Positions 1 through 51,421 of a stretch of DNA of 64,000 nucleotides are shown one piece after another. This DNA comes from Candidatus Magasanikiibacteriota bacterium. GTDB lineage: Bacteria > Patescibacteriota > Patescibacteriia > Magasanikbacterales > GWA2-37-8. Within the stretch, counting starts at the first letter, position 1. Every line of letters starts with the position of its first letter. The notes beneath the pieces are model-generated. The model was not told where the DNA came from, made no database searches, and saw nothing but the letters and a program-made list of their open reading frames with translations. A program made the position numbers and the translations under genes. Where the stretch lies: assembly GCA_041666745.1 (NCBI GenBank), contig JBAYGI010000001.1, positions 155,095 to 219,094 on the forward strand, given 5' to 3'.

Positions 1-2
1 AT

Positions 3-186
3 GGAAGGACAGTAGATGCTTTGGTGGCCAAAGAATCTGCGGGAGGTAGCCATGCGATTTCCTACAAAAATCCAGATACTGGAGAGGTCAAACTGGTTAC
101 TGATCCAAAAAGGATATTCGATGAGAACCATTTAGGTAGCACGCCTAGGATTGTAGCAGGTGGTAGAGGCACAGCGAGTTTAAAGT
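3..186 (+). CDS. 3' end of an upstream gene (partial, C-terminal fragment), product unknown
   Basis: Frame 3 is open from the window edge to TAA at 184-186 (...GRTVDALVAKESAGGSHAISYKNPDTGEVKLVTDPKRIFDENHLGSTPRIVAGGRGTASLK*). A hairpin terminator follows. Confidence 0.3.
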
Positions 187-196
187 AAAGTAACTT

Positions 197-231
197 AAAA
201 AACCCTTAGCATAAGCTAGGGGTTTTTGCTG
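197..231 (+). terminator. Rho-independent terminator
   Basis: AACCCTTAGC-ATAA-GCTAGGGGTT forms a 10-bp stem and is followed by TTTT. Confidence 0.6.
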
Positions 232-268
232 TTATTAGCCAAAATATGGCATTTTTACCCCCACCCCC

Positions 269-297
269 TTGACAAAATCTCTGTTTAGTGGTATACT
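269..297 (+). promoter_or_regulatory. sigma70-like promoter (TTGACA-17-TATACT)
   Basis: TTGACA at 269-274, a 17-nt spacer, and TATACT at 292-297. It lies at the head of GC-rich island 1. Confidence 0.55.
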
Positions 298-393
298 TAT
301 CTGTTAGTTTTAAAAAGGACAATTTAATCGAGTTTCATCTGAGGTTTTGAGAGAGACCAAAGATAAAAGGAAATAGCCGATAAGAATGCAATT

Positions 394-417
394 CTCTCAC
401 CAATGAGAGTTTTTTTG
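394..417 (+). terminator. Hairpin plus U-run (intrinsic terminator or attenuator) inside the long leader
   Basis: CTCTCA-CCAA-TGAGAG followed by TTTTTTT. It sits about 120 nt downstream of the 269-297 promoter. Confidence 0.45.
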
Positions 418-475
418 TGCCATTTTAGTCTAGTGAACAATATACATTGTGGACTGGACTAAGATTGCAACGACG

Positions 476-490
476 GTTCTTTACAATTTA
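476..490 (+). repeat. Cassette boundary box A (gTTCTTTAcAATTTA), copy 1
   Basis: Near-identical 15-mers lie upstream of every GC-rich ORF: 476-490, 1658-1672, 2657-2671, and the variant gCTCTTTAAAACTTA at 13457-13470. Confidence 0.6.
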
Positions 491-497
491 GATGGTA

Positions 498-726
498 AAA
501 AAACTACTTAATCTGCGTGGAAGTAAATACGTGTCATTCCCGTGAAAACGGGAATCTAACATATCTTTACTCCCACGCAGGTTCTAAGCGTAGGGGGGTT
601 GCACCTTTTTGGTGTAGGCCTTCCCGCGTTAGGGAAAAACGTGCAAAGCGTCAGAGTTAACAACTTCGTTCCATCAGAAGGTAACCAATCTTTTCTGCAT
701 GGGACAACGTCCTTTAAGGAGGACCA
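498..726 (+). promoter_or_regulatory. Conserved structured 5' leader, copy 1 (about 85% identical to 13478-13715)
   Basis: A long hairpin CTGCGTGGAAGTAAA...TTTACTCCCACGCAG encloses the REP hairpin. Further conserved blocks are GGGGGGTTGCACC and GGTGTAGGCCTTCCC, the GGAC/GTCC/GGAC alternative pairing around the SD, and an overlapping uORF (MGQ...). Confidence 0.55.
533..563 (+). repeat. REP-like hairpin repeat (TGTCATTCCCGTGAAAACGGGAATC)
   Basis: The ATTCCCG/CGGGAAT stem is present. The same unit recurs at 2627, 9154, 13518, 14446, 14486, 14773 and 28592. Confidence 0.7.
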
Positions 727-1473
727 ATGAACTGCCCATCCTGTAACGTCCTGCTCGCAGTCCCAATGCCGAATTCGTGTCCCTCGTGTGGGCACCTTCT
801 TCTGACGGTCCCGGTCGCCATGGCGGCACCGCGATTGGTCGGAAGCTTTTCGGTACAGCAGCCCGCCACCCCCGCCCCCGTCACCACGACGCCGCCGGCC
901 GCTCCGACCACGGTGGTCACGACGCAATCCGCCCCCGCGACCATTCAGGTTGCGTCCGTATTGCTTTGGATCGCCGGCATTCTGGCCGCTGTCGTGTTGA
1001 TCGCGATTCTGATCCTGACGTGGGTCAACGTGAAAACAACGGCGACGACTGATGAGTTGGCCCGCGCCACCAAACTCATCAACGATAACTCCGATGAGAA
1101 CGGCGAAGTGGTCGTCAAGGCCACTCGCGGCGCAATCGGCACCTCCGAAACGAATGTCAAGCAGGCCATCACAGCCAGCGAGACGAACGTCAAGAAGGCA
1201 ATCACCGATGACGGCAATGCGACGCGCACCGCGATCACCACTTCCGAAACGAATGTCAAGCAGGCCATCACAGCCAGCGAGACGAACGTCAAGAAGGCAA
1301 TCACCGATGACGGCAATGCGACGCGCACCGATGTCAAGGAAGCTCGTAAGGCCCTCCGTTGGGCCATAGCGTCACGGGCATCGAAGTCTGATATCTCGAC
1401 GCTGGAAACGAACATGAGGGCGTCCATCAAGGACAGCAAGCTCACGGTGCGGATCGAAGATCAGCGCAAGTAA
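727..1473 (+). CDS. GC-rich bitopic membrane protein: N-terminal CxxC...CxxC zinc ribbon, Pro/Thr-rich linker, one TM helix, two 33-aa tandem repeats
   Basis: 248-aa ORF with an AAGGAGG SD 7 nt upstream. GC is about 65% with high GC3. The TM helix is IQVASVLLWIAGILAAVVLIAILILTW. The repeat unit is TSETNVKQAITASETNVKKAITDDGNATRT, present twice. Confidence 0.65.
   Translation: MNCPSCNVLLAVPMPNSCPSCGHLLLTVPVAMAAPRLVGSFSVQQPATPAPVTTTPPAAPTTVVTTQSAPATIQVASVLLWIAGILAAVVLIAILILTWVNVKTTATTDELARATKLINDNSDENGEVVVKATRGAIGTSETNVKQAITASETNVKKAITDDGNATRTAITTSETNVKQAITASETNVKKAITDDGNATRTDVKEARKALRWAIASRASKSDISTLETNMRASIKDSKLTVRIEDQRK
1141..1338 (+). repeat. Tandem direct repeat of 99 nt (two 33-codon units) inside the CDS
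   Basis: The 99-nt unit beginning TCCGAAACGAATGTCAAGCAGGCC... recurs 99 nt downstream and is almost identical. Confidence 0.8.
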
Positions 1474-1600
1474 GTAGTTTTTCAACCATCTGCCCTCGCT
1501 AGTCGGGCGTTGTATTTAGTTCACAAGGAGAACTAAACGCACAAAGTACTAGCAAACGCTGGGTGAGGGTAATGAGAATTTTCTCCTAAAGGCAAATCCT

Positions 1601-1620
1601 CCCCACATCCACTTGAATAC
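1601..1620 (+). repeat. Cassette boundary box B (CCCCAcATCcaCTTGAATAC), copy 1
   Basis: Related motifs lie downstream of each island-1 ORF: 1601-1620, 2557-2585 (CCCCATTGTCCATCATCTTGAATAA) and 4523-4542 (CCCCACCATCTTGAATTCAT). Confidence 0.55.
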
Positions 1621-1657
1621 ATTATTGAAACATAGTGTGGTCAAGCGGATGAAAAAT

Positions 1658-1672
1658 GTTCTTTAAAATTTA
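1658..1672 (+). repeat. Cassette boundary box A, copy 2
   Basis: GTTCTTTAAAATTTA, 67 nt upstream of the 1740 start codon. Confidence 0.6.
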
Positions 1673-1739
1673 GGTTAGGAAAGTGGCGAATTGCGTCACG
1701 TGAGATTTCAATTCTTCAACGGTCACAAGGAGACCAATC

Positions 1740-2438
1740 ATGAAGAAGACAATCAAGTTGGTCGCGAGCTTTTTCGCGATGATGGTCGCATTGGCGGTCA
1801 TCGGTGCTTCGTCGGCTTCGGCAGACGAAGTTCAGGCAAATGTCGGCGATGAGGTCGAAGTCAAGGACGGCGACACGATCGTGGTCAAACTGCCAAAGAG
1901 CCAGACCCACGTCAGGCTTGGTGGCAAAACCAAGGTCGTGACACCGACATCAGCCCTCGACGACGAGTTCGCACAGCAGGCCAAGGCGGTCACCGAGCCC
2001 GAGGACGCCACGTCCTCGGTTGAGTTCGCAATGTTCGCGTCGAAAGATCCTAATATGGCCGTGGTTGGATCCAAGCTGGGTTTCGCGACGAAAGTCGGGA
2101 CTCCATTGGTTCGTGCCTACGCCGGCGCAACCTTCGGAAAGGCTCTCACGGATCTCAGCGGTTCGAATCAGAATCTTTGGGTCTTCGGCTTCAACGCCGG
2201 CGTCTCGAAGCTCATGACGAAAACTGTCGAGCTCGGAATCTTTGGCACGGCCACCTGGTCGTACCGAGATGTAGTTCGTGAGGCCTCCGCATCGTTCATC
2301 GGTGCGGGTCCGGCACTCCGTGTCAACAAGTGGGGCGTGTTCGTTGAGGCAGGAATTCCGATCGGCTATTGCAACAAGTTTTCCAGAGGTTGGGAGACAG
2401 GTTCGGCCCTTCAAGCCGCCTTCGGTTTCCGCTTCTAG
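1740..2438 (+). CDS. GC-rich secreted protein with a signal peptide and a C-terminal ...AAFGFRF beta-barrel OMP-like signature
   Basis: 232 aa. Signal peptide MKKTIKLVASFFAMMVALAVIGASSASA|DE. Alternating hydrophobic residues end in a terminal Phe. SD AAGGAGA. High GC. Confidence 0.6.
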   Translation: MKKTIKLVASFFAMMVALAVIGASSASADEVQANVGDEVEVKDGDTIVVKLPKSQTHVRLGGKTKVVTPTSALDDEFAQQAKAVTEPEDATSSVEFAMFASKDPNMAVVGSKLGFATKVGTPLVRAYAGATFGKALTDLSGSNQNLWVFGFNAGVSKLMTKTVELGIFGTATWSYRDVVREASASFIGAGPALRVNKWGVFVEAGIPIGYCNKFSRGWETGSALQAAFGFRF

Positions 2439-2556
2439 TAGCCCCACATCCTCAGTTAGCAGAACTGTAAAACTGCCGGTTGTTCGTCGTCGCAGATTTT
2501 CGCGATTGGCGAACCGAGATCTTGGGCTCGGCCGTGCGTTTCTCGCATGGCCAGCT

Positions 2557-2585
2557 CTCCCCATTGTCCATCATCTTGAATAAAT
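2557..2585 (+). repeat. Cassette boundary box B, copy 2
   Basis: CTCCCCATTGTCCATCATCTTGAATAAAT. Confidence 0.5.
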
Positions 2586-2626
2586 ATGGTGTACAGTGTC
2601 AGAGAGTAAAGTTTCTGATAAATAAT

Positions 2627-2652
2627 TGTCATTCCCGTGAAAGCGGGAATCC
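2627..2652 (+). repeat. REP-like hairpin repeat
   Basis: TGTCATTCCCGTGAAAGCGGGAATCC inserted into the inter-cassette spacer. The homologous spacer at 1621-1657 lacks it. Confidence 0.7.
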
Positions 2653-2656
2653 AACA

Positions 2657-2671
2657 GTTCTTTACAATTTA
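2657..2671 (+). repeat. Cassette boundary box A, copy 3
   Basis: GTTCTTTACAATTTA. Confidence 0.6.
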
Positions 2672-2859
2672 AAACAACGATAGGAAGAAAATTTCCCACC
2701 GCGAAGAGAGTGTGTGTATCTAATACATAATTTCTCTCCGCGGGGGCGAAATTTTCTCCCCAAGGTAATCCGCTTGCTTCTCAGCGAGGAGAAGTGGGTT
2801 GCGGGGGAAAATCCCGCGAGAGTGTCTTTCTGCCAACCAAGACCTATGGAGGGTCATCA

Positions 2860-4319
2860 TGCAGAGCAAGAACATCAAGTTGGTCGCGAGCTGCATCGCG
2901 ATGCTGGTCACGTTGGTGATCAGCGGCTGTAATGGGTTCGAAAACCCCAACTCCACGGACGTCGCCAACAGTGGCACGGACGTGGCGGCGGCGGACGCGG
3001 GTAACACCGCGGACGCCGGACAGAAGGCTGAGATCGCGTCGGTCGACGCCGGCAACGCCGGCACCGACACCTCCGTGCAGGAAGTGCAGCAGGTCGAGAT
3101 CGCGCAGCAGGAAGTCACGACGGACGCCGGCCCAAAGCCGGAGTGCGTCACCAAGACCGATTGCGACGACAACAACCTGTGCACGGTGGATTTCTGTGAG
3201 CAGGGCAAGTGCAGTCATGCGGACGCCTCGGGCGACTGCGACGACGGCAATGCCTGTACGCTCAAGGACACGTGCTCGGCCGGCGCCTGCAAGGGCACGC
3301 CGGTCGACTGCAACGACAACAATCCCTGCACGGACGATTTCTGCCTCGGTGGCGTGTGTTATCAGGGCGTCAACAATGCGCCCTGCAACGACAACGACGC
3401 CTGCACGCAGGAGATGTGCTCGGGCGGCACGTGCCAGATTGGCACGGTGACCGACTGCAACGACAACAACCCATGCACGATCGACACGTGTGATAAGACC
3501 AAGGGTTGTACCAATACACCAGTCGTCTGCGAAGATGGCGATCTGTGCACTATGGATTGGTGCGATTTCGAAACTGGTGCCTGTCTTTTCGTCAACAAGG
3601 TTTGTGACGACGGCAAAGCATGGACAGAAGATTTTTGTGACAGCTTCGGCTGGTACGGAGTCCCTGGCCAGTGTGTCGCAGAAAACAAGCCAAATGGCTG
3701 TTCTAAGGACACGGACTGCAAATGGGACGGCAACCTTTGCACGTTCGTGACCTGCAACGGTATCACAGGCACATGCGGGGCAATCGACAAGAACTGCAAC
3801 GACAATTTGCCCTGCACAGTCGATTCCTGCGCCCCGTCGAAGGGGTGTGTCAGCACGCCGGTGAACTGCGACGATAACAACACCTTGACGACAGACAGTT
3901 GCAATGCTCAGGGCGCCTGCGTCCACACGCCGGTTGGCACCACGCCGACCCCGACGCCGACCACGTTCGTCCAGCTCGGGTTCGTCGCTCCTGTGGCGGC
4001 GGAAATCCACGTCTTTCACGGCGTGGATCCGTCCGATCCGGCCAAGAACGTCGAATCGATCGGGCTGGCTCCCTACGTCATCAACCTTAACCAGTACGAG
4101 GCTTGTGGTACGGCCGATGGTATCGACATCGCCGTGCGCAATCCGACCACGATGGTTTGGTGGTGCGGAGTGGGAGATGGCACGCCGAGCAAGGCACAGC
4201 TCAGTGTCTCGGTCAACGGAAAGTTGGTGACCCCAACGTTCCAGATCGAAATCGGAGCTTGCAGCAACGGACCGGAGGGCAATCTCCACCTGAGCAAATT
4301 GCAGCTCGGCTGTCCCTAG
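2860..4319 (+). CDS. GC-rich lipoprotein with about 12 Cys-rich CxDxNxCTxDxC repeats (Myxococcus-type cysteine-rich repeat)
   Basis: Start chosen at MQSKNIKLVASCIAMLVTLVISGC (lipobox ISGC) with GGAGGG 6 nt upstream. The longer ORF from 2799 has no SD. Repeats are of the form CNDNNPCTDDFC and CDDGNACTLKDTC. High GC. Confidence 0.65.
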
Positions 4320-13477: not shown

Positions 13478-13715
13478 ACTACTCAACCTACGTGGAAGTA
13501 AGCACATGTCATCCGACTGTCATTCCCGTGAAAACGGGAATCTAACATATCCTTACTCCCACGCAGGTTCCAGGCGTCGGGGGGTTGCACCTTGTTGGTG
13601 TATGCCTTCCCTACGCTAGGGAAAAACGTGTACAGCGTTCAGTGTTTTAACCCCTTCGTTCCATCAGTGGTAGCCAATCCATCTGTATGGGACAACTGTC
13701 CATTAGGAGGACAAC
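13478..13715 (+). promoter_or_regulatory. Conserved structured 5' leader, copy 2
   Basis: Aligns with 498-726 at about 85% identity. A compensatory pair change occurs in the outer stem (GTAAA/TTTAC versus GTAAG/CTTAC). The GGAC-GTCC-GGAC switch is conserved. A uORF ends in ATGA overlapping the main start. Confidence 0.55.
13507..13548 (+). repeat. REP-like hairpin repeat (with a partial duplicate TGTCATCCGAC)
   Basis: TGTCATCCGAC followed by TGTCATTCCCGTGAAAACGGGAATCTAACAT. Confidence 0.7.
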
Positions 13716-14445: not shown

Positions 14446-14510
14446 TGTCATTCCCGTGAAAACGGGAATCTGTTTAAATAATAAGATTCCCGTTTTCACG
14501 GGAATGACAG
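14446..14510. repeat. Palindromic pair of REP-like units
   Basis: TGTCATTCCCGTGAAAACGGGAATC, a 15-nt spacer, then GATTCCCGTTTTCACGGGAATGACA. Confidence 0.75.
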
Positions 14511-14514
14511 GCTT

Positions 14515-15468
14515 TTATTCCCCAGTGATTAGACAAACTATCGGTCCGGTGAATTTCCAATTTTGTTTTGTTGCTTGTTGGAGTCCAACAATCGACAGGG
14601 CGCTGTTGGATGAAAGTTTTATTTTTTCGGTTTTATATACTAGTTTTATTATATCTTTTATCTGTGTGTCATCGGCAACCCAACCAAACCCTCGACTGCT
14701 TTTTATATCCGCCACCACCATTTCTTTGCGGTGAGCGACATTGTCCACAATCGCGCCGGCTAGTGATATCTTTGTCATTCCCGCGAAAGCGGGAATCTGA
14801 GAATTGTTGATAGATCCCCGCATTCGCGAGGATGACAAACATGAGGATGACAGGGACAACGCATCCGTTATCGGATGGCAAGCGGTAGTTTGGACAATAT
14901 GAATTTGTGGTGTTAGTTTTAACTTTTTAAAACCATTGTATAGCCCTTGAGCGGTAGTGCCACTGCTGGTTGGAATAAACACAGCAGATAGATTTTTTAT
15001 TTTACTTAATTCTAGGGCGAGTTGTTCATAACCAAGTAAAGCTAGGTCGTCGGTTGACTGGCGCAATATTTTTGCCTGCCCTGATTTGTCCATTTGAAAA
15101 GCCGACTGTTTTGGATTTTTGGTTTGGGTGATGGTGATGTTTTTCGACATTACCTTTTTTAATAATCCGAGTTTGTTTTTGTCTATTTTTTCACCCACAA
15201 AAATCTGTAAAGACAATTTGTTTTTATGTTTTTGATTGTATTTTTTGATATACAAACCGGTAGCCAACGCGGCATTTCCCGAAGAAGATATCACAAAATT
15301 GACCTGTCCTTGTTTGACATAGGTATCGATCATAATTGGCAGAGAACGCCCTTTGTGCGAACCCAGCGGATGCAAGTCTTCTCTCTTGAAATAGAGTGGC
15401 ACCGCCAAGCCGAGCGTTTTGGCCAATTTTTGAGGTTTTGTTTGGGGGGTAATCATAGGTCTTGCCAA
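14515..15468 (-). CDS. PLP-dependent enzyme, fold type II (threonine synthase/cysteine synthase-like), carrying an in-frame REP-derived insert of about 27 aa
   Basis: GSHKGRS PLP-lysine motif near the N-terminus. The insert ...LSSSRMRGSINNSQIPAFAGMTKIS... is encoded by the REP units at 14773-14855. Confidence 0.55.
   Translation of the reverse strand: MARPMITPQTKPQKLAKTLGLAVPLYFKREDLHPLGSHKGRSLPIMIDTYVKQGQVNFVISSSGNAALATGLYIKKYNQKHKNKLSLQIFVGEKIDKNKLGLLKKVMSKNITITQTKNPKQSAFQMDKSGQAKILRQSTDDLALLGYEQLALELSKIKNLSAVFIPTSSGTTAQGLYNGFKKLKLTPQIHIVQTTACHPITDALSLSSSCLSSSRMRGSINNSQIPAFAGMTKISLAGAIVDNVAHRKEMVVADIKSSRGFGWVADDTQIKDIIKLVYKTEKIKLSSNSALSIVGLQQATKQNWKFTGPIVCLITGE
14773..14855. repeat. Two REP-like units inside the PLP enzyme gene, in-frame
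   Basis: TGTCATTCCCGCGAAAGCGGGAATC at 14773-14797 and ATCCCCGCATTCGCGAGGATGACA at 14814-14837, plus a partial GAGGATGACA. Confidence 0.7.
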
Positions 15469-15702: not shown

Positions 15703-15730
15703 AAGCTCCGAATCGTCGGGGCTTTTTTAT
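15703..15730. terminator. Bidirectional intrinsic terminator
   Basis: AAGCTCCG-AATCGT-CGGGGCTT followed by TTTTTTATTT. It lies between convergent genes. Confidence 0.6.
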
Positions 15731-16284
15731 TTACCAAAAATCTGTTTTTTGAATTTCGCCAATTCTGTTTTTCCCTTTAGTTGCATTTTCAAAATATCGC
15801 AGACAAATTGGTTGTTCCATTTTGGCAGAGCAATCGTATCTTTGATAAACTGATCAAAACTTTGTTTGACAAGGGTGATTTTTTCTCCAGCATCCAGGTG
15901 TTGCTCAGCTACTTTTTCGCAATCTCGAGCGATGTAATAATAAATCGTCCAATTCATTTTGTGTACCGGTTCGTAGGTTTTGAGCAACTTCCATTTTTTG
16001 GAGACCATACCGGATTCTTCCAACAATTCTCGCTTGGCCGCCACTAATATATCTTCACCCTTATCTACGCGTCCGCCCAAAAGTCCGTGATCACGTTTTT
16101 GATTCGGTTGAATTTCTTTGGTGGTCAAGATTTTGTCACCTTGGGTGGCGATGATCTGCACAGTATCCGGCCGGCCAATCATTTCGAAAGTGGCAGTCGA
16201 ACCATCAAACATTTTTTGCGGCCATTGATAAACATCAAAAATTTCTCCAGTAAAAACTTTCTTGGCCTGTCGTGGAATTTTCAT
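15727..16284 (-). CDS. NUDIX hydrolase
   Basis: Nudix box GGRVDKGEDILVAAKRELLEESG. Confidence 0.75.
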   Translation of the reverse strand: MKIPRQAKKVFTGEIFDVYQWPQKMFDGSTATFEMIGRPDTVQIIATQGDKILTTKEIQPNQKRDHGLLGGRVDKGEDILVAAKRELLEESGMVSKKWKLLKTYEPVHKMNWTIYYYIARDCEKVAEQHLDAGEKITLVKQSFDQFIKDTIALPKWNNQFVCDILKMQLKGKTELAKFKKQIFGK

Positions 16285-16694
16285 AATTTATACAAATTAT
16301 TGTTGTAGGTAGGTTCACTGTCATTCCGAGCGAAGCCGAGGAATCCCTTAACACCATTCACTGCTCAAATCTTTCCAAGTTGGATTTATTGTTTTTATTA
16401 AATACTCTTTTTTCTCTCTGCGCCATTTTTTAAGTTGTGTTTCTCTTTCAATCGCATTATTTATATCATTATAATGTTCGTAGTAAATTAATTTATGACA
16501 AGAATATTTTTTTGTAAAGCCATCAATTAATTTTTGTTTATGTTCGGACAGTCGTCTTTCTAAATTGTTGGTCACTCCTATATATAAAGTTCCGCTGTCG
16601 CTGCTTAGGATGTATATATAGTAGTTGTGTTTTTTCATATTTTAAGGGATTCCTCGGCTTCGCTCGGAATGACACTTAATTTATACAAATTATA
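16285..16694. mobile_element. GIY-YIG gene cassette bounded by 29-30-bp inverted repeats and 16-bp direct repeats
   Basis: Direct repeats AATTTATACAAATTAT at 16285-16300 and 16679-16694. IR-L CTGTCATTCCGAGCGAAGCCGAGGAATCCC at 16318-16347. IR-R, its reverse complement, at 16646-16674. Confidence 0.55.
16348..16638 (-). CDS. GIY-YIG nuclease family protein (small, YhbQ-like)
   Basis: YIYILSSDSGTLYIGVTNNLERRLSEH is the GIY-YIG motif. 96 aa. Confidence 0.7.
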   Translation of the reverse strand: MKKHNYYIYILSSDSGTLYIGVTNNLERRLSEHKQKLIDGFTKKYSCHKLIYYEHYNDINNAIERETQLKKWRREKKEYLIKTINPTWKDLSSEWC

Positions 16695-16724
16695 CGAAGC
16701 GTTTCACTGTTTGAAAAATCATAC

Positions 16725-18086
16725 CTACAACATGTTTTCTATGATACCCCTAAAACTATGACTACCCATAAAAACAATCGCATCACCAGTTTTGGAATTT
16801 GTGTTTAAATAATTTATCAATTCCTCGTCATTTTCAAAATATTTTACATCGCCATGGGTTTTGGAAATAACTTTGGACAGTTCTTCACCTTCAACACATC
16901 CGGCGGTTTTGACTTTGGTCAGGCGGGGGATGATCACCTCGGTAGCATCGACGAATTGGTTGTCATAATCCGGCAGTGATTCTTTTTGGCGGTTGCCGGT
17001 GTTTGGTTCGAAAACGGCGATTATTTTTCCGGTATAAATATTTTTTAAAGTAGATAACACGGATTTGGCTTTGGTGGGTGAATGGGCAATATCGTCATAC
17101 ACATCAGCGCCGGCGATAGTGTGTCCGCGTTTTTCCAGTCGGCGTTTGATGCCGTCGAATTTGGCAATCGCGTCGATAATCTTTTTTGGTTCAATGCCGA
17201 TTTCTTTGGCCATCACAAACGCGCCACAGATATTTTCGGCCATGTAGTCGCCAAGCATAGGGGATTGAATATCAAAAATCTCGCCAATATTTTCAACTGT
17301 AAAATTCAATCCGTCTTTATTTTGAAAAACATCTCCGTAAATATATTGACTGTTACTTTTTCCATAAGTTACGACCGGAGTTCTGGCTTTGGTAATAATA
17401 TTTTTTATGTTGGTGTTGTCTGTACAGGCGACGATCAATCCGTCGTGTGGAATGATAGCTACCAATTTTTCAAAAGCCTCTAAATATAAAAGTTCGGTAG
17501 GATAAACATCTGCGTGATCCCATTTGATACCGGTGAGTAGTAGGTGAGTAGGTTTGTAGGAGAAAAATTTCGCGCGGATATCATCGCGACTGGTTTTGTA
17601 TTCATCACCTTCGATAACACTCCAATTTCCGCCCAAATCATCGGCGCTCAACTCTAGGCTGTTGGCCAAGCCACCAAACATATAAGCGGGATCAAGACCG
17701 GCGGATTTCAAAATCCAAGCGAGTAGGGCAGAGGTGGTAGTTTTGCCATAGGTACCGGCACAGACAATCGAATTTTCTTTGATTAAATTTTGCGCGATTA
17801 ATTCCGGATAAGAAACATGAGGAATATTGTTTTCCAAAACATATTTTAATTCCGGGTTTTCACTGCCGGCGACATTGCCGACGACCACCAAATTGGGCGT
17901 ATTCATTTTTTCGACGTGCCAACCCGGATAGTAGGCAATATTGTGTTTGGTCAAATGTGTGGAAATCGGCGGATAAAAACCCACATCACTGCCGGTAACT
18001 TCCCAACCCTTTTTTTGCCACAAAATCGCCAAGGCACTCATCCCAACTCCGCAGATTCCGATAAAATGGATATGCTTTTTATCCAT
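16725..18086 (-). CDS. murC: UDP-N-acetylmuramate--L-alanine ligase
   Basis: N-terminal HFIGICGVGMSALA and the Mur ligase GxxGKT-like region AGTYGKTTTSA. Confidence 0.8.
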   Translation of the reverse strand: MDKKHIHFIGICGVGMSALAILWQKKGWEVTGSDVGFYPPISTHLTKHNIAYYPGWHVEKMNTPNLVVVGNVAGSENPELKYVLENNIPHVSYPELIAQNLIKENSIVCAGTYGKTTTSALLAWILKSAGLDPAYMFGGLANSLELSADDLGGNWSVIEGDEYKTSRDDIRAKFFSYKPTHLLLTGIKWDHADVYPTELLYLEAFEKLVAIIPHDGLIVACTDNTNIKNIITKARTPVVTYGKSNSQYIYGDVFQNKDGLNFTVENIGEIFDIQSPMLGDYMAENICGAFVMAKEIGIEPKKIIDAIAKFDGIKRRLEKRGHTIAGADVYDDIAHSPTKAKSVLSTLKNIYTGKIIAVFEPNTGNRQKESLPDYDNQFVDATEVIIPRLTKVKTAGCVEGEELSKVISKTHGDVKYFENDEELINYLNTNSKTGDAIVFMGSHSFRGIIENML

Positions 18087-37062: not shown

Positions 37063-38280
37063 ATGAAATTTTCTCTCAAAAAACCCGTTATATATGTAGC
37101 TCGCGATCTCGAGCGTGCTTTGGGTTTGCCGATTACGACCAAAGGCTATTACATTATCTCAAATTATACCTCATTTGCCAATAGTTTGGTTAAAGGTAGG
37201 AAAAATGTGTTGTTGGTGAAAAGTGGCCAGATTTTGGATACTCGCGAATTATTGAACCATCAGACGGCCGTTAATTTTATCAATAATATAAAAGATGCTC
37301 AATTGTTGGTTTTCAAAAACACACCCCAAATCGAAAAAATTTGTTTGGAGCATGATTGGGTATTGCTAAACCCACCAGCCAGTTTGTCCGCAAAAGTGGA
37401 AGAAAAAATTTCTCAGGTAAAATGGCTCGGTGGTTTGAAAAAATATTTACCGAGATTTTCAGTGCGTATCACCAAAGAAATATTTTGGGAGGGAAAGCCG
37501 TTTATTTTACAATTCAATCGGGCGCACACCGGCAGTGGCACTATTTTGGTAGAAAACGAAAAACAACTGTCGGATATTCAAACGAAATTTCCATTGCGCG
37601 AAGTGCGGGTCACCCAATTTATTTCCGGTCCGATATTTACCAACAACAATATTGTTTGGGGAAATAAAGTTTTGGTAGGAAATATCAACTACCAGATAAC
37701 CGGTTTGAAACCATTTACCAACAATCGTTTTGCGACGGTGGGCAATGATTGGTCTTTGCCACATGAAATTTTATCGGCCAAACAAAAAAAGGAATACGCC
37801 GAGATGGCCACGGCAATCGGAAAAAAATTGGCGCAAGATGGCTGGAAAGGTTTGTTTGGAATAGATGTGGTGCAAGATGAAAAAACCGGTCAGTTGTATT
37901 TGATAGAAATAAACGCTCGTCAACCGGCGAGTACCAGCTTTGAGTCGTATTTGCAACTTCATTGTCATTCCGACCCGCTTCGCCGTAGCTTCAGCGAGGC
38001 GAGCCGAGCGGAGGAATCCCTGACGACTTTCCAAGCCCATTTGTCGGCTTTACAAGATGAAAAAAATGCCGGCGTACATTTGATCAAAATCACCACCGGC
38101 GCGCAAATTACTCAAAAAGTTGTTGCCGGTCTAGGTGATAAAAAAATAGCAACACTCACACGAAAATTAATTACCAAAAAATTCAAAATTTTTTTATACG
38201 ATAATCATGAAATAGAAAAAGATTTGTTACGTATTCAAACTAAAAAATCAATGTATGACATTATCTCCCAAATCCAATAA
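37063..38280 (+). CDS. ATP-grasp domain protein with an in-frame repeat-derived insert
   Basis: GLFGIDVVQDEKTGQLYLIEINARQPAS is an ATP-grasp C-terminal motif. The insert HCHSDPLRRSFSEASRAEESLTT is encoded by a type-B repeat. Confidence 0.55.
   Translation: MKFSLKKPVIYVARDLERALGLPITTKGYYIISNYTSFANSLVKGRKNVLLVKSGQILDTRELLNHQTAVNFINNIKDAQLLVFKNTPQIEKICLEHDWVLLNPPASLSAKVEEKISQVKWLGGLKKYLPRFSVRITKEIFWEGKPFILQFNRAHTGSGTILVENEKQLSDIQTKFPLREVRVTQFISGPIFTNNNIVWGNKVLVGNINYQITGLKPFTNNRFATVGNDWSLPHEILSAKQKKEYAEMATAIGKKLAQDGWKGLFGIDVVQDEKTGQLYLIEINARQPASTSFESYLQLHCHSDPLRRSFSEASRAEESLTTFQAHLSALQDEKNAGVHLIKITTGAQITQKVVAGLGDKKIATLTRKLITKKFKIFLYDNHEIEKDLLRIQTKKSMYDIISQIQ
37964..38020 (+). repeat. Type-B REP-like element (GTCATTCCGA...GGAGGAATCCC) inserted in-frame
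   Basis: Shares its termini with the inverted repeats flanking the GIY-YIG gene (GTCATTCCGAGCGAAGCCGAGGAATCCC). Confidence 0.6.
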
Positions 38281-48493: not shown

Positions 48494-51421
48494 ATGGCCA
48501 TAATAAATTTTTTACGAAAGGCGAATGCATTCGCGCTTGTTTTTATGATTGTCATCGCAGTATTTTGTACTTTAGTTTTTGTTAAAATAACAAATGCTCA
48601 AGTAAAAGAGTGGAGCTTCGCTAATTGTACTGATACTGATGGTGGAACTGATTATTTTTTAAAAGGTGATTTTGCTTATGACACACTCCACAATGGGAAA
48701 GTCAATGGTCATGCTGGTGGAGTTGAAAAATGTGTTGGAAATGTGGTAGAAGAAAATATTTGTACGGATGATTCGCCAAAAATTACGAAATATACATGTC
48801 CAAATGGTTGCAAAGATGGCGCTTGTATTGCAGAAACAAAGCCTTTATGTACCGACTCCGACAATGGAAGGGATTATTTTGTAAAAGGGGAGTCAACGGA
48901 TTTTGGCGATACCAGAAAAGATGTTTGTTTTGATTCAAATACTGTTACGGAATTTTTTTGTGAGCAAGCGGCCGGTCAAACACGGCCATCTCGAGGAGCG
49001 GAACAGAAAAATTGTGAATACGGATGTGATGATGGAGCTTGTTTAACAGAGCCGATGGAAAAACCGGAAGAATTGCAGGATGTAAAAACATTTACGGTTT
49101 ATGCCGGTGTTGAAGTATATTATAAAAATTCAGAATTTGAAGTAAATGGAGCGGCGAGCGACCCAAAAACGAGCTTATCTGATTTGTTGGATATGCGTTG
49201 GTCTAAAATTTCCGGTCCAGCGGGTGGCAAGGTGTTGTTTAGCCAGGCAAAGTGTACGCCTTCCAATTGGATGGGGTTTTGCAAGACCACTATTTCTGCA
49301 ACTAAGGACGGAGTATATAAAATTCGACTGAAAGCTATAAATATTAAAAAAACCAGCTCTTATGATGACATCGCTTTGGTGTGGGATACAAAAGGTCCGG
49401 TGTTAAAGGAAGTCAAAAGAATTCCGGTTATTGGAAATGATCCAAATCCGACAGTTACAATTAATGTGTCAGCTATAAATTCCGTCAAACAAGTTTACAA
49501 CCGTTTCGGATATATTATCTATGGCGGCGCGTGCGCTGGCCATGATACTTCGGTCAAACAAGGAAATAATGCGATTGAGTTGTTAAAATTGGCTGATGGA
49601 ACATACGACGATTGTACTATTCAGGTGCAGGATATGGCTGGCAATTTGAGTAATGTTTTAAAAATTTCCAAATTCACCATTGACACTCAATCGCCGACTC
49701 CGCCGGAGATAAGTCAACCGGAAGATGATATTACCGACTCATCGTACATAATATCCGGCACGAAAGAAGCAGGAGCATCTGTGTGGTTGGGAAAAAAGCA
49801 GATAGTGAAACATGATGCAGGCACAAATTGGAAGTATAAAGTTAAATTGAATAGTGGGGAAAATAATTTTGGCATATTTACAGAAGATGAGGCGGGTAAT
49901 GATAGTCAAAAAGTTGTCTTAAATGTTGAAAAACAAAAACCGGTTTGTAACGCGTGGGCGTATGGCGCGTGGGGAAAGTGTGACGATAACCAGCAAATGC
50001 GTAAAATATTTTCTGCTTCTCCAAAAAATTGCGTTGGCGGAAAACCGGATGTGGCCAAAGATTGTAAAGCAGAAAAAAATAAACCATTGTGCGAGTCGTA
50101 TAATTATTCAACATGGAGCAAGTGTGTAAATAATAAACAGGTCAGGACTATTGAATCAACATTGCCGGATAATTGCCGTGGCGGGGAGTCGCCTGTTTTG
50201 AGTCAAATATGCGGTAAAGATGTTTGCGAGTCCGTAAATTACACGACATGGAGCAGCTGTGATAAAAATACTGGCAAGAAAACACGCAAAATTGAATCTA
50301 CTTCGCCAGCGGTTTGTGTTGTTGAAAAACCTGTATTGAGCACAGATTGCAACGGTTGTGAATCATTTAATTATTCCGTTTGGAGTTCCTGCGTAAATAA
50401 TAAACAGACCAGAACAGTTGAATCCACATTGCCTACGGATTGCAGTGGTGGTGTTCAGCCGGTGTTAAGTCAGACATGTGGTAAATCATCATGCGATTTT
50501 GTTTATTACACCACTTGGAGCGCTTGCGACAAAACTACAGGCAAACGAACGCGTCAAGTTGAATCAACGTCGCCAAAACTTTGTGTTCCGGAAAATCCGG
50601 AGTTGTCAAAAGATTGCAATGCTTGCGAATCATATAATTATTCTATGTGGAGCGCGTGCGTAAACAACACACAGACCAGAAATGTGGAATCAACTTTCCC
50701 ATCTGATTGCAGTGGTGGTGTTCAGCCGATAAAAAGTCGTGAATGTGGTAAGACCGCTTGCGATTTTACATATTACACAACATGGAGCGCCTGTGACAAA
50801 ACCACCGGCCAAAGAACACGAAAAGTAGAGTCAACTGTACCTGCGGTTTGTGTTGTGGATAAGCCATGGCTGACCAAAGATTGTAACGCTTGTGAATCAT
50901 ATAATTATTCTACGTGGAGTGCTTGCGTGAATAACACACAAAGCCGAACGATTGAATCCACTTTTCCATCGGATTGTAGCGGTGGAGCGCAACCACTATT
51001 GAGCCGAGAGTGTGGCAAGGAATTTTGTGACTATGTCTATTACACCACTTGGAGCAAATGCGATAAAAATACTGGCAAAAGAACACGTACAGTAGAATCT
51101 ACTTCACCGGCGGTTTGTGTTCCTGAAAATCCGTGGTTGTCAAAAGATTGTGATCTTTGTGAGTCATATAATTATTCGGCATGGAGCGCTTGTGATGGGA
51201 GCGGTGTTCAACACCATACAGTAGAATCAACATTTCCTGAAGATTGCTACGGTGGAGCCCAGCCGTCACTCACGCGCAATTGCGTAGCTTGCGATTCGTG
51301 GATTTATGGCACATGGGGCGCTTGCGCGAACGGTCAGCAGACCAGAACTGTAATGCCCGGCACAGCACTCCCTCTTAATTGTTGGGGTGGTTCGCCGTTG
51401 CTTTCGCAATCGTGCTTTTGA
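48494..51421 (+). CDS. Giant secreted protein (975 aa) with about 14 alternating Cys-containing tandem repeats of about 47 aa (thrombospondin-type-1-like WSxC...R pattern)
   Basis: Signal anchor at the N-terminus. Repeat type X is CESYNYSTWSACVNNTQTRTVESTFPSDCSGG..P.LS..CGK. Repeat type Y is CDF.YYTTWSACDKTTG.RTR.VESTSP..CV.E.P.LSKDCN. Confidence 0.6.
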   Translation: MAIINFLRKANAFALVFMIVIAVFCTLVFVKITNAQVKEWSFANCTDTDGGTDYFLKGDFAYDTLHNGKVNGHAGGVEKCVGNVVEENICTDDSPKITKYTCPNGCKDGACIAETKPLCTDSDNGRDYFVKGESTDFGDTRKDVCFDSNTVTEFFCEQAAGQTRPSRGAEQKNCEYGCDDGACLTEPMEKPEELQDVKTFTVYAGVEVYYKNSEFEVNGAASDPKTSLSDLLDMRWSKISGPAGGKVLFSQAKCTPSNWMGFCKTTISATKDGVYKIRLKAINIKKTSSYDDIALVWDTKGPVLKEVKRIPVIGNDPNPTVTINVSAINSVKQVYNRFGYIIYGGACAGHDTSVKQGNNAIELLKLADGTYDDCTIQVQDMAGNLSNVLKISKFTIDTQSPTPPEISQPEDDITDSSYIISGTKEAGASVWLGKKQIVKHDAGTNWKYKVKLNSGENNFGIFTEDEAGNDSQKVVLNVEKQKPVCNAWAYGAWGKCDDNQQMRKIFSASPKNCVGGKPDVAKDCKAEKNKPLCESYNYSTWSKCVNNKQVRTIESTLPDNCRGGESPVLSQICGKDVCESVNYTTWSSCDKNTGKKTRKIESTSPAVCVVEKPVLSTDCNGCESFNYSVWSSCVNNKQTRTVESTLPTDCSGGVQPVLSQTCGKSSCDFVYYTTWSACDKTTGKRTRQVESTSPKLCVPENPELSKDCNACESYNYSMWSACVNNTQTRNVESTFPSDCSGGVQPIKSRECGKTACDFTYYTTWSACDKTTGQRTRKVESTVPAVCVVDKPWLTKDCNACESYNYSTWSACVNNTQSRTIESTFPSDCSGGAQPLLSRECGKEFCDYVYYTTWSKCDKNTGKRTRTVESTSPAVCVPENPWLSKDCDLCESYNYSAWSACDGSGVQHHTVESTFPEDCYGGAQPSLTRNCVACDSWIYGTWGACANGQQTRTVMPGTALPLNCWGGSPLLSQSCF
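49945..51420 (+). repeat. Tandem coding repeats with a period of about 141 nt, two alternating types
   Basis: Seen in the translation. The nucleotide units are divergent but clearly periodic. Confidence 0.6.

Follow-up and report, generated by a model that had tools for sequence, protein, structure and literature searches.

Background

Chenal et al. (Nat Commun 2025; PMC11893778) described the Ssn proteins, which have about 94 amino acids and GIY-YIG as their single domain (CDD cd10448) and whose genes are typically bracketed by hairpin repeats, i.e. the NTS repeats in Neisseria and, more generally, Ssn-related motifs (SRMs). Here we analyse a small unit of closely similar design, which consists of a stand-alone GIY-YIG gene between inverted hairpin repeats and lies between murC and a Nudix hydrolase gene in a 64,000-nucleotide stretch of DNA from an uncultured bacterium of the Candidatus Magasanikiibacteriota (contig JBAYGI010000001.1), below referred to as the window. 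Judged by homology and comparative sequence analysis, this unit is very probably a member of the Ssn family, with a gene for an endonuclease of about 95 amino acids flanked by inverted copies of its cognate SRM, inserted at a hot spot between murC and the Nudix gene and accompanied by a 17-bp direct repeat that is peculiar to this copy. An Ssn-type unit as such is an already described kind of element; what is new is its host, which belongs to the Patescibacteria (Magasanikbacteria), and the presence of arm variants that escape the published motif pattern.

The biochemistry of the family has been worked out with the enzymes of N. meningitidis, N. elongata, N. wadsworthii and Wolbachia, which bind their motif only as single-stranded DNA (ssDNA) and cut it a few nucleotides upstream (PMC11893778). 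The characterised members do not cleave double-stranded DNA (dsDNA), and cleavage of ssDNA, without strand transfer, is the only activity reported (PMC11893778). The Neisseria NTS (CGTCATTCCCGCGMAVGCGGGAATCYRG) contains the classical dRS3 repeat; the 3 nt before its palindrome are critical for cutting and the C after the palindrome is critical for binding, with the palindrome ends likewise being experimentally important in SRMs (PMC11893778). A published SRM search pattern was found on both sides of only 42% of the homologues in a survey that used RefSeq reference genomes and in which Patescibacteria go unmentioned (PMC11893778). Restriction of incoming ssDNA is the role proposed for Neisseria Ssn, and the authors also remark on the likeness of the unit to an insertion sequence (IS), with mobility put forward as a hypothesis only (PMC11893778).

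Two other systems share parts of this design. In the RAYT/REPIN system (Nunvar 2010, Ton-Hoang 2012), a single-copy nuclease gene is also located between inverted repetitive extragenic palindromic (REP) hairpins, which occur as scattered singlets and inverted doublets and are recognised as ssDNA. RAYT, however, is a Y1 HUH transposase, whereas Ssn is a GIY-YIG protein and the window protein has no HUH domain, i.e. the two systems are analogous and not homologous; moreover, any joining or mobilisation by Ssn is hypothetical. In the likewise small IS200/IS605 elements, subterminal hairpins are recognised in single-stranded form and cleavage takes place a short distance away, but these hairpins are on the same strand, the elements generate no target duplication and their TnpA is an HUH enzyme, in contrast to the inverted hairpins and the unrelated enzyme of the window.

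A probable member of the Ssn family in Magasanikbacteria

The gene, here termed ssn (16348-16638 including the stop codon, minus strand), is an open reading frame (ORF) of 96 amino acids that starts with ATG. Its product matches PF01541 (E=3.6e-17) over residues 5-77, and this GIY-YIG domain is the only one found; in particular, the protein contains no recognised transposase domain (DDE, HUH-Y1, serine or tyrosine recombinase). It is 47% identical over 85 amino acids to SsnA of N. gonorrhoeae (E=2e-26 in pairwise blastp) and matches the 94-amino-acid gonococcal ORF with 1e-16 in tblastn against a 7.3-Gb database, and because of these two values it counts as a homologue by the threshold of the Ssn paper (E < 1e-10). 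Its residues Y9, Y19 and E66 align with the catalytic Y6, Y17 and E64 of SsnA. The gonococcal orthologue used here, which was taken from a chromosome misfiled among plasmid sequences, consists of 94 amino acids, possesses Y6, Y17 and E64 and has 7 strict NTS copies within 700 nt. Matches to other GIY-YIG proteins are much weaker: the UPF0213 structures 1ywl and 1zg2 give E values of ~1e-6, the group I intron endonuclease family TIGR01453 scores 20.6 and thus stays under its cut-off of 56.05, and PHROG homing-endonuclease matches are marginal (phrog_5123, E=9e-4). The best protein match overall (100%) is annotated as Candidatus Magasanikbacteria. The family thereby extends to ultra-small, uncultured Patescibacteria; in contrast to the Neisseria system, the one in the window is known here from sequence alone.

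On both sides, the gene is bordered by the arms of an inverted repeat. A repeat tool reports 38-nt arms of 95% complementarity (16314-16351 and 16642-16679), of which 33 bp (16319-16351 and 16642-16674) are fully complementary; the perfect part reaches 33 bp because the inner TTAA, which overlaps the ssn stop codon, is self-complementary. An earlier, sequence-only reading of this locus had correctly placed the GIY-YIG ORF on the minus strand between the Nudix gene and murC and had also recognised the inverted repeat, but had set its perfect length at 29-30 bp and its coordinates need to be corrected accordingly. With the sequence TGTCATTCC-GAGCGAAGCCGA-GGAATCCC, the arms were found both by inverted-repeat detection and by a motif scan. 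The downstream arm (16319-16351) is SRM-like when read on the plus strand (TGTCATTCCGAGCGAAGCCGAGGAATCCCTTAA) and the upstream arm (16642-16674) carries the identical motif on the minus strand, with both arms reading TGTC-ATTCC...GGAAT-C, so that all experimentally critical positions are kept. The GTC ends of both arms point away from ssn. The inner end of the downstream arm overlaps the ssn stop codon and the motif of the upstream arm ends 7-10 nt before the ATG; in the coordinates of the scan, the arms are 3 nt past the stop codon and 10 nt ahead of the ATG. A 28-mer from the arms (GTCATTCCGAGCGAAGCCGAGGAATCCC) occurs exactly twice in the 64 kb, even with up to 3 mismatches allowed, where no occurrence is expected. 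The region of the arms has no match in Rfam, and neither the PADLOC defence models nor a prediction of intrinsic terminators gives a hit there.

The same gene-hugging geometry with outward-facing arms is seen in 7 other Patescibacteria cassettes as well as around the homologues of Shinella, Rhizobium and Aeromonas. In these cassettes, the downstream arm begins 3-34 nt past the stop codon, unless it overlaps with the end of the gene, and its position relative to the stop codon is the same in L006, L074, L075, L084 and L102; the upstream arm ends 9-64 nt ahead of the ATG. The stems vary by lineage (ATTCC/GGAAT, ATCCC/GGGAT, ATTTC/GAAAT, ATTCT/AGAAT and ATCCTCGGG/CCCGAGGAT), but their complementarity is kept. 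The nearest arms point inward in the crowded Neisseria locus, whereas those of the window, Shinella, Rhizobium and Aeromonas point outward. Outward orientation was considered as a novel trait and dropped as such, since it is the common arrangement.

The window arms also differ from the Neisseria motif by a longer and imperfect inner segment (GAGCGAAGCCGA) and are not captured by the published SRM pattern. Since this pattern misses such longer arm variants, surveys that use it undercount units of this kind.

Hairpin repeats of the same type are scattered over the window, and the abundance of solitary motif copies is a further trait shared with Neisseria. The published pattern HGTCWYN(0-2)YYVSBRHN(0-5)WNVSBRGN(0-2)RNCYNB is matched by 3 solitary REPs (0.07 expected), and the strict NTS pattern by none in the window. 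A looser rule (GTC, a 5-nt stem, its complement and C) gives 20 raw matches against a background of 13.9; because this is not above background, only matches with the TGTCAT...GGAATC signature were counted. The commoner REP of the window (TGTCATTCCCGYGAAARCGGGAATC) is almost identical to the Neisseria NTS and is present in 8 clean copies, starting at about 533, 2628, 9154, 13519, 14447, 14485, 14774 and 28593, and in one degenerate copy at 14810-14837. The arms of the ssn unit represent a distinct variant that has the outer parts in common with this REP. A third, solitary copy of the arm type (TGTCATTCCGACC...GAGCGGAGGAATCCCT), found by the motif scan, occupies 55 nt on the plus strand (37964-38018) and encodes HCHSDPLRRSFSEASRAEESL in frame within a 405-amino-acid ORF (37063-38280, plus strand). 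The assignment of the arms to a second, 'type-B' REP family distinct from TGTCATTCCCGYGAAARCGGGAATC is thereby borne out, and the SRM/NTS-type motifs add up to 12 copies within the window.

Some of these REPs form doublets or larger units. An inverted NTS-like doublet at 14773-14837 is located in frame within the gene for an enzyme dependent on pyridoxal phosphate (PLP; ORF 14515-15468, minus strand), to which it adds about 19 amino acids (...SSSRMRGSINNSQIPAFAGMTK...); the L041 and L044 orthologues lack this insert, and in L010 the same site is occupied. Just downstream of the same gene, a tight, REPIN-like inverted doublet (14446-14476 and 14479-14509, 2 nt apart) is found in the intergenic region. 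A 94-nt repeat of 94% identity (532-625 and 13518-13611) begins with an NTS-like REP and continues with unrelated sequence, which suggests a larger composite repeat unit. The in-frame copies in two genes (14773-14837 and 37964-38018), the first of which is absent from some orthologues, are reminiscent of the Rickettsia palindromic elements. This likeness, however, concerns the solitary repeats and not the cassette, and the listing of Rickettsia among SRM-rich genomes (PMC11893778) is the sole basis for any relation between these elements and SRMs.

Insertion at a hot spot between murC and the Nudix gene

Both neighbours are on the minus strand: upstream of ssn, murC (16725-18086) has a normal C-terminus (RGIIENML*), and downstream, the Nudix hydrolase gene (15727-16284) is the gene that directly follows murC in relatives. 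An important question is whether the unit is a discrete insertion between these two genes. For comparison, we used murC from 40 species-level genomes, 32 metagenome Nudix loci and 3 contigs obtained by exact-protein look-up. The order murC to Nudix is kept in about 35 compared loci, and both empty and filled junctions, the contrast that the sequence-only reading had named as a check of its idea, were found among them.

The junction is tight, i.e. -1 to 20 nt, in L004, L007, L008, L009, L013, L016, L017, L023, L032, L037, L045, L046, L091 and L092. Thirteen related genomes have such a junction without any insert. Of the loci listed, L091 and L092 can be regarded as close relatives because their Nudix proteins are 82% and 80% identical to that of the window. 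A complete SRM-ssn-SRM cassette is located at the junction in the window, L006 and L102. Two more distant relatives, L048 (1242-1398) and L050 (2870-3000), have a gene-less pair of inverted SRM-like hairpins with arms ~60-75 nt apart, with murC reading into the first hairpin; these pairs could have arisen by decay of a cassette or by independent movement of a doublet. At least 13 genomes have junction inserts other than the cassette or the arm pair. These include a MITE-like element (resembling miniature inverted-repeat transposable elements) of ~95 nt in either orientation (L001, L003, L041, L002, L072, L043), a second palindromic element (L005, L042, L090) and other short inserts (L010, L047, L049, L051). 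The MITE-like element has 15-nt terminal inverted repeats (AAAATTAATWTTCCA...) and internal GC-rich hairpins and is reversed in L002, L072 and L043, while the second palindromic element is ~150 nt long; neither of the two occurs in the window.

In a neighbour-joining tree of the Nudix proteins, the window is sister to L092 with its tight junction (bootstrap 74), and L006 is sister to L090 (bootstrap 100), in which a different element is present. This tree, together with the junction states, indicates that the junction is a hot spot, the state of which changes faster than the lineages diverge. Close ssn homologues (69-82% identity) with the same arm geometry are found in unrelated neighbourhoods, again between co-oriented genes. 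By these comparisons, the gene and its inverted arms represent one discrete unit, inserted into an ancestrally tight murC-Nudix junction. Of the earlier suggestion of a small mobile unit, the discrete insertion therefore stands, with tight empty junctions in relatives and homologues in unrelated neighbourhoods, whereas the target duplication is not supported (see below).

No sister strain with an unoccupied site was found: the MurC scan of genome contigs (40 loci) gave 82% identity at best, the Nudix scan of metagenomes (32 loci) gave 81%, or 93% over a 45-amino-acid fragment, and among 5.8 billion proteins none exceeded 83% identity to the Nudix protein besides that of the window itself. A locus from an independent sample (L089), which is 99.85% identical, has the same layout, i.e. 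no presence/absence polymorphism was found.

Proteobacterial Ssn homologues are also located between co-oriented genes of conserved operons, e.g. sufB and sufC in Azospirillum (L099) and rnc and era in Sphingomonas (L100), and a general tolerance or preference of ssn units for such operon junctions is suggested. In a related metagenomic contig (L103, 2681-2993), a Cas12a (Cpf1)-like gene is found ~1.7 kb downstream of an ssn cassette.

The 17-bp direct repeat

Outside of its arms, the unit is flanked by two exact copies of the near-palindromic 17-mer TAATTTATACAAATTAT, copy a at 16284-16300 and copy b at 16677-16693. These copies had previously been read as 16-mers; the repeat is indeed exact, but it is 17 nt long and the second coordinate had been 1-2 nt off. 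This repeat is non-random: when the two 100-nt outer flanks are compared, no exact direct repeat is longer than its 17 nt, 2000 dinucleotide shuffles give 11 nt at most, and 654 control pairs of real sequence from the same window reach a maximum of 16, with only 2 of the 654 having 14 nt or more.

The position of the repeat relative to the arms is asymmetric. Copy b is 2 nt outside of the upstream arm and is separated from the murC stop codon by a 31-nt spacer (16694-16724), which is similar both to the murC tail of L006 and to the native spacer of L010. Copy a abuts or overlaps the start codon of the Nudix gene (CAT at 16282-16284) and is 18 nt away from the downstream arm (spacer TGTTGTAGGTAGGTTCAC, 16301-16318). 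The latter spacer begins with 11 nt whose reverse complement is found at the murC stop codon (16722-16732), a match that could have arisen by chance.

In the two other cassettes at the same junction (L006 and L102), the left arm directly adjoins murC codons, with murC reading into the arm, and 6-7 nt separate the end of the right arm from the ATG of the Nudix gene; a flanking direct repeat is absent from both. More generally, none of 8 other cassettes examined (2 at the same site, 6 elsewhere; L006, L102, L073, L074, L075, L084 and a second L006 copy are the ones named) has a flanking repeat of more than 8 nt outside of arm-derived sequence. The sequence-only reading had named a GIY-YIG gene at this locus without inverted or direct repeats as the finding that would speak against it; in L006 and L102 the direct repeats are indeed missing, but the inverted arms are present. 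As a property of the element, the interpretation of the direct repeat as a target-site duplication is not supported, both because other cassettes lack the repeat and because its spacing about the arms is asymmetric, and a single flanking direct repeat should, as a general caution, not be read as a target-site duplication.

What else could the repeat be? On the minus strand, a promoter-like match precedes ssn (TTTTCA-17-TATAAT), with its -10 element overlapping copy b, and another one precedes the Nudix gene (ATGACA-17-AATAAT), with its -10 element overlapping copy a and its -35 element coming from the arm end. These two are the best matches in the region, each with 10 of 12 consensus positions. 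Most likely, the 17-mer represents a duplicated Nudix-proximal promoter or operator segment that would have been generated during or after integration. Such a duplication would provide ssn and the Nudix gene with a putative -10 box each, so that both could have been kept expressed after the insertion.

A number of observations weigh against parts of this picture, i.e. a unit of the Ssn family with cognate SRM arms and a copy-specific 17-mer. Searched in the 64-kb window, the degenerate SRM pattern as published matches neither flanking arm; this pattern is a search heuristic and not a defining trait of the family. The arms fold weakly (-1.9 and -3.1 kcal/mol, with z-scores that are not significant), whereas the NTS-like REPs of the window fold at -7.8 to -9.0 kcal/mol (z -4.0 to -4.7; standard DNA parameters). 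The promoter-like matches are no commoner than in shuffled sequence (4 vs 2.8 +/- 1.6). Two incompatible reconstructions of the spacer before insertion, drawn from L010, L006 and L102, fit about equally, with the model of a 17-bp duplication predicting the empty junction ...GAAACGCTTCGTATAATTTGTATAAATTATGAAAATTCC and that of an 8-bp duplication predicting ...TTTTTCAAACAGTGAACCTACCTACAACAATAATTTG. Finally, there is a small chance that the 17-mer is a one-off target duplication confined to the window copy.

The second of these reconstructions belongs to an alternative that we consider possible, if clearly not the favoured one, in which the 17-mer is a by-product of illegitimate or microhomology-driven integration or of a later patch duplication: the insert would have brought its own 17-mer, and the true duplication would be the 8-nt ACAGTGAA. 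This octamer is present in both flanks. There are similarities between the right flank CAGTGAACCTACCTACAACA...ATTATG and the native L010 spacer CAGGAACCTAACAAATTATG and between the left flank GGTATGATT..GAAACGCTTCGT and the murC tail next to the arm in L006, and in this model the 18 nt beside the downstream arm would be native, L010-like spacer. In addition, L010 has a 16/17 match to the 17-mer directly after the stop codon of its PLP-enzyme gene, which suggests a reusable regulatory sequence. All these similarities, however, are short (7-11 nt), occur in AT-rich DNA and are each near chance level, and a donor with the 17-mer beside an arm was not found.

Also the alternative of an autonomous IS-like transposon, with Ssn as the transposase, the arms as the ends and the 17-bp repeat as the target-site duplication, has to be considered. 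The layout of a gene between inverted repeats, its status as an insertion and the occurrence of close homologues in different gene contexts are all in line with it, as is the resemblance to an IS that had been pointed out for Ssn units in general (PMC11893778); moreover, the repeat is exact and non-random and one of its copies ends within 1-2 nt of the position at which a nick is expected by analogy with the Neisseria enzyme. But target duplications are not usually as long as 17 bp, this duplication would have to be 2 nt away from one arm and 18 nt from the other, and no comparable flanking repeat accompanies the 8 other cassettes, two of which are at the identical junction. The L010 spacer agrees no less well with the 8-nt reconstruction. 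Furthermore, there is a single cassette copy in the 64-kb window, identical proteins elsewhere were found only in the same context, and for the Ssn family it is ssDNA cleavage, not strand transfer, that is documented (PMC11893778). Taken together, an autonomous transposon of this type seems unlikely.

Divergence and spread

The ssn genes of the two other cassettes at the murC-Nudix junction are the closest known to that of the window, with 87% (L006) and 83% (L102) amino acid identity. Synonymous divergence (pS) among the three same-site ssn genes is 0.47-0.56. For window versus L006, in contrast, full-length murC and the Nudix gene give pS values of 0.69 and 0.73, i.e. near saturation, and all 57 flank windows of 96 codons are at 0.58 or above; between unrelated ssn genes, pS reaches 0.75-0.91. 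These values hint at a cassette that may be younger than the split of the genomes and may thus have been transferred into the same site. The contrast is weak, however, because the 46 murC codons adjoining the cassette give 0.60-0.62 on as few as 27 synonymous sites. One old insertion with later losses is possible, which would require exact restoration of the normal murC end in L092.

A transfer into the same site would also be expected from a free-standing homing-type GIY-YIG gene that spreads specifically into the murC-Nudix junction, either by cutting empty alleles with subsequent recombination or simply by transformation and homologous recombination in the conserved flanks. All three closest ssn genes occupy one junction, their genomes do not form a group on the Nudix tree, and the pS of these genes is lower than that of the flanking genes, with 0/57 flank windows under 0.58, which fits this idea. 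Against it, the 96-amino-acid protein is devoid of a DNA-binding domain and fails to reach the cut-off of TIGR01453, its PHROG matches are marginal, and the characterised Ssn members leave dsDNA uncut (PMC11893778). Moreover, other members of the family are located at many different sites, the borders of the window cassette are unlike those of L006 and L102, the pS of the adjoining murC codons is not clearly unlike that of ssn (27-50 synonymous sites), and a single ancient insertion with subsequent losses could also have produced the pattern. Homing is therefore distinctly improbable.

An ordinary housekeeping protein of the UPF0213/YhbQ type that came to lie between two REP copies by chance, as might be thought from UPF0213 proteins being the nearest solved structures and from REPs being common in the window, is effectively refuted by the far stronger match to SsnA (2e-26 vs ~1e-6), by the fixed register of the arms to start and stop codons in every homologue, by the rarity of the arm type (3 copies in the window, two of them at ssn) and by the gene being missing from most relatives at this locus.

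How the unit might act and move

For an Ssn-type unit, the properties of the characterised enzymes translate into specific expectations. By analogy, the window protein would bind the arm motif (GTC, the ATTCC...GGAAT palindrome and C) only when this is single-stranded, for instance during replication, repair or DNA uptake, and would introduce a nick on its 5' side, a few nucleotides away. As the GTC ends face outward on both arms, the nicks are predicted just outside of the unit and on opposite strands, i.e. near 16313-16318 on the plus strand and near 16675-16680 on the minus strand. The idea, already contained in the sequence-only reading, of a nuclease that acts on REP-like hairpins thus corresponds to what has been published for the Ssn enzymes of Neisseria, including N. 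elongata and N. wadsworthii, and of Wolbachia (PMC11893778), and probably applies here as well. Such nicks might move the unit or the solitary repeats, or might serve to restrict incoming ssDNA, as has been proposed for Neisseria. The unit landed in the once tight murC-Nudix operon junction, which is a recurrent target of small palindromic elements in Magasanikbacteria.

One could go further and regard the SRM-ssn-SRM unit as actively mobile by a new class of mechanism: nicks on opposite strands, 5' of the two outward-facing arms, would allow the unit, or arm pairs without the gene, to be copied or moved into AT-rich operon junctions, and the window copy would have kept a fresh 17-bp target duplication. 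We consider this rather doubtful. If true, the junction would present such an element in its filled, empty and decayed states, and this would be the first comparative evidence for the mobility that has been hypothesised. Even so, the series of tight junctions, cassettes, a gene-less arm pair and unrelated mini-elements between murC and the Nudix gene has a bearing on past or present mobility, for which it provides modest evidence.

Other features of the window

Two further regions of the window stand out by their composition or repetitiveness. Positions 1-4000 have a G+C content of 50-57%, compared with ~40% elsewhere, with the NTS-like REPs at 533 and 2628 as bounds, and contain 99-nt tandem repeats (1113-1310) and repeated Cys-rich coding modules (3155-3844). 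At 50090-51190, a 267-nt unit occurs four times in tandem with ~70% identity between the units, which presumably belongs to a repetitive surface-protein gene.

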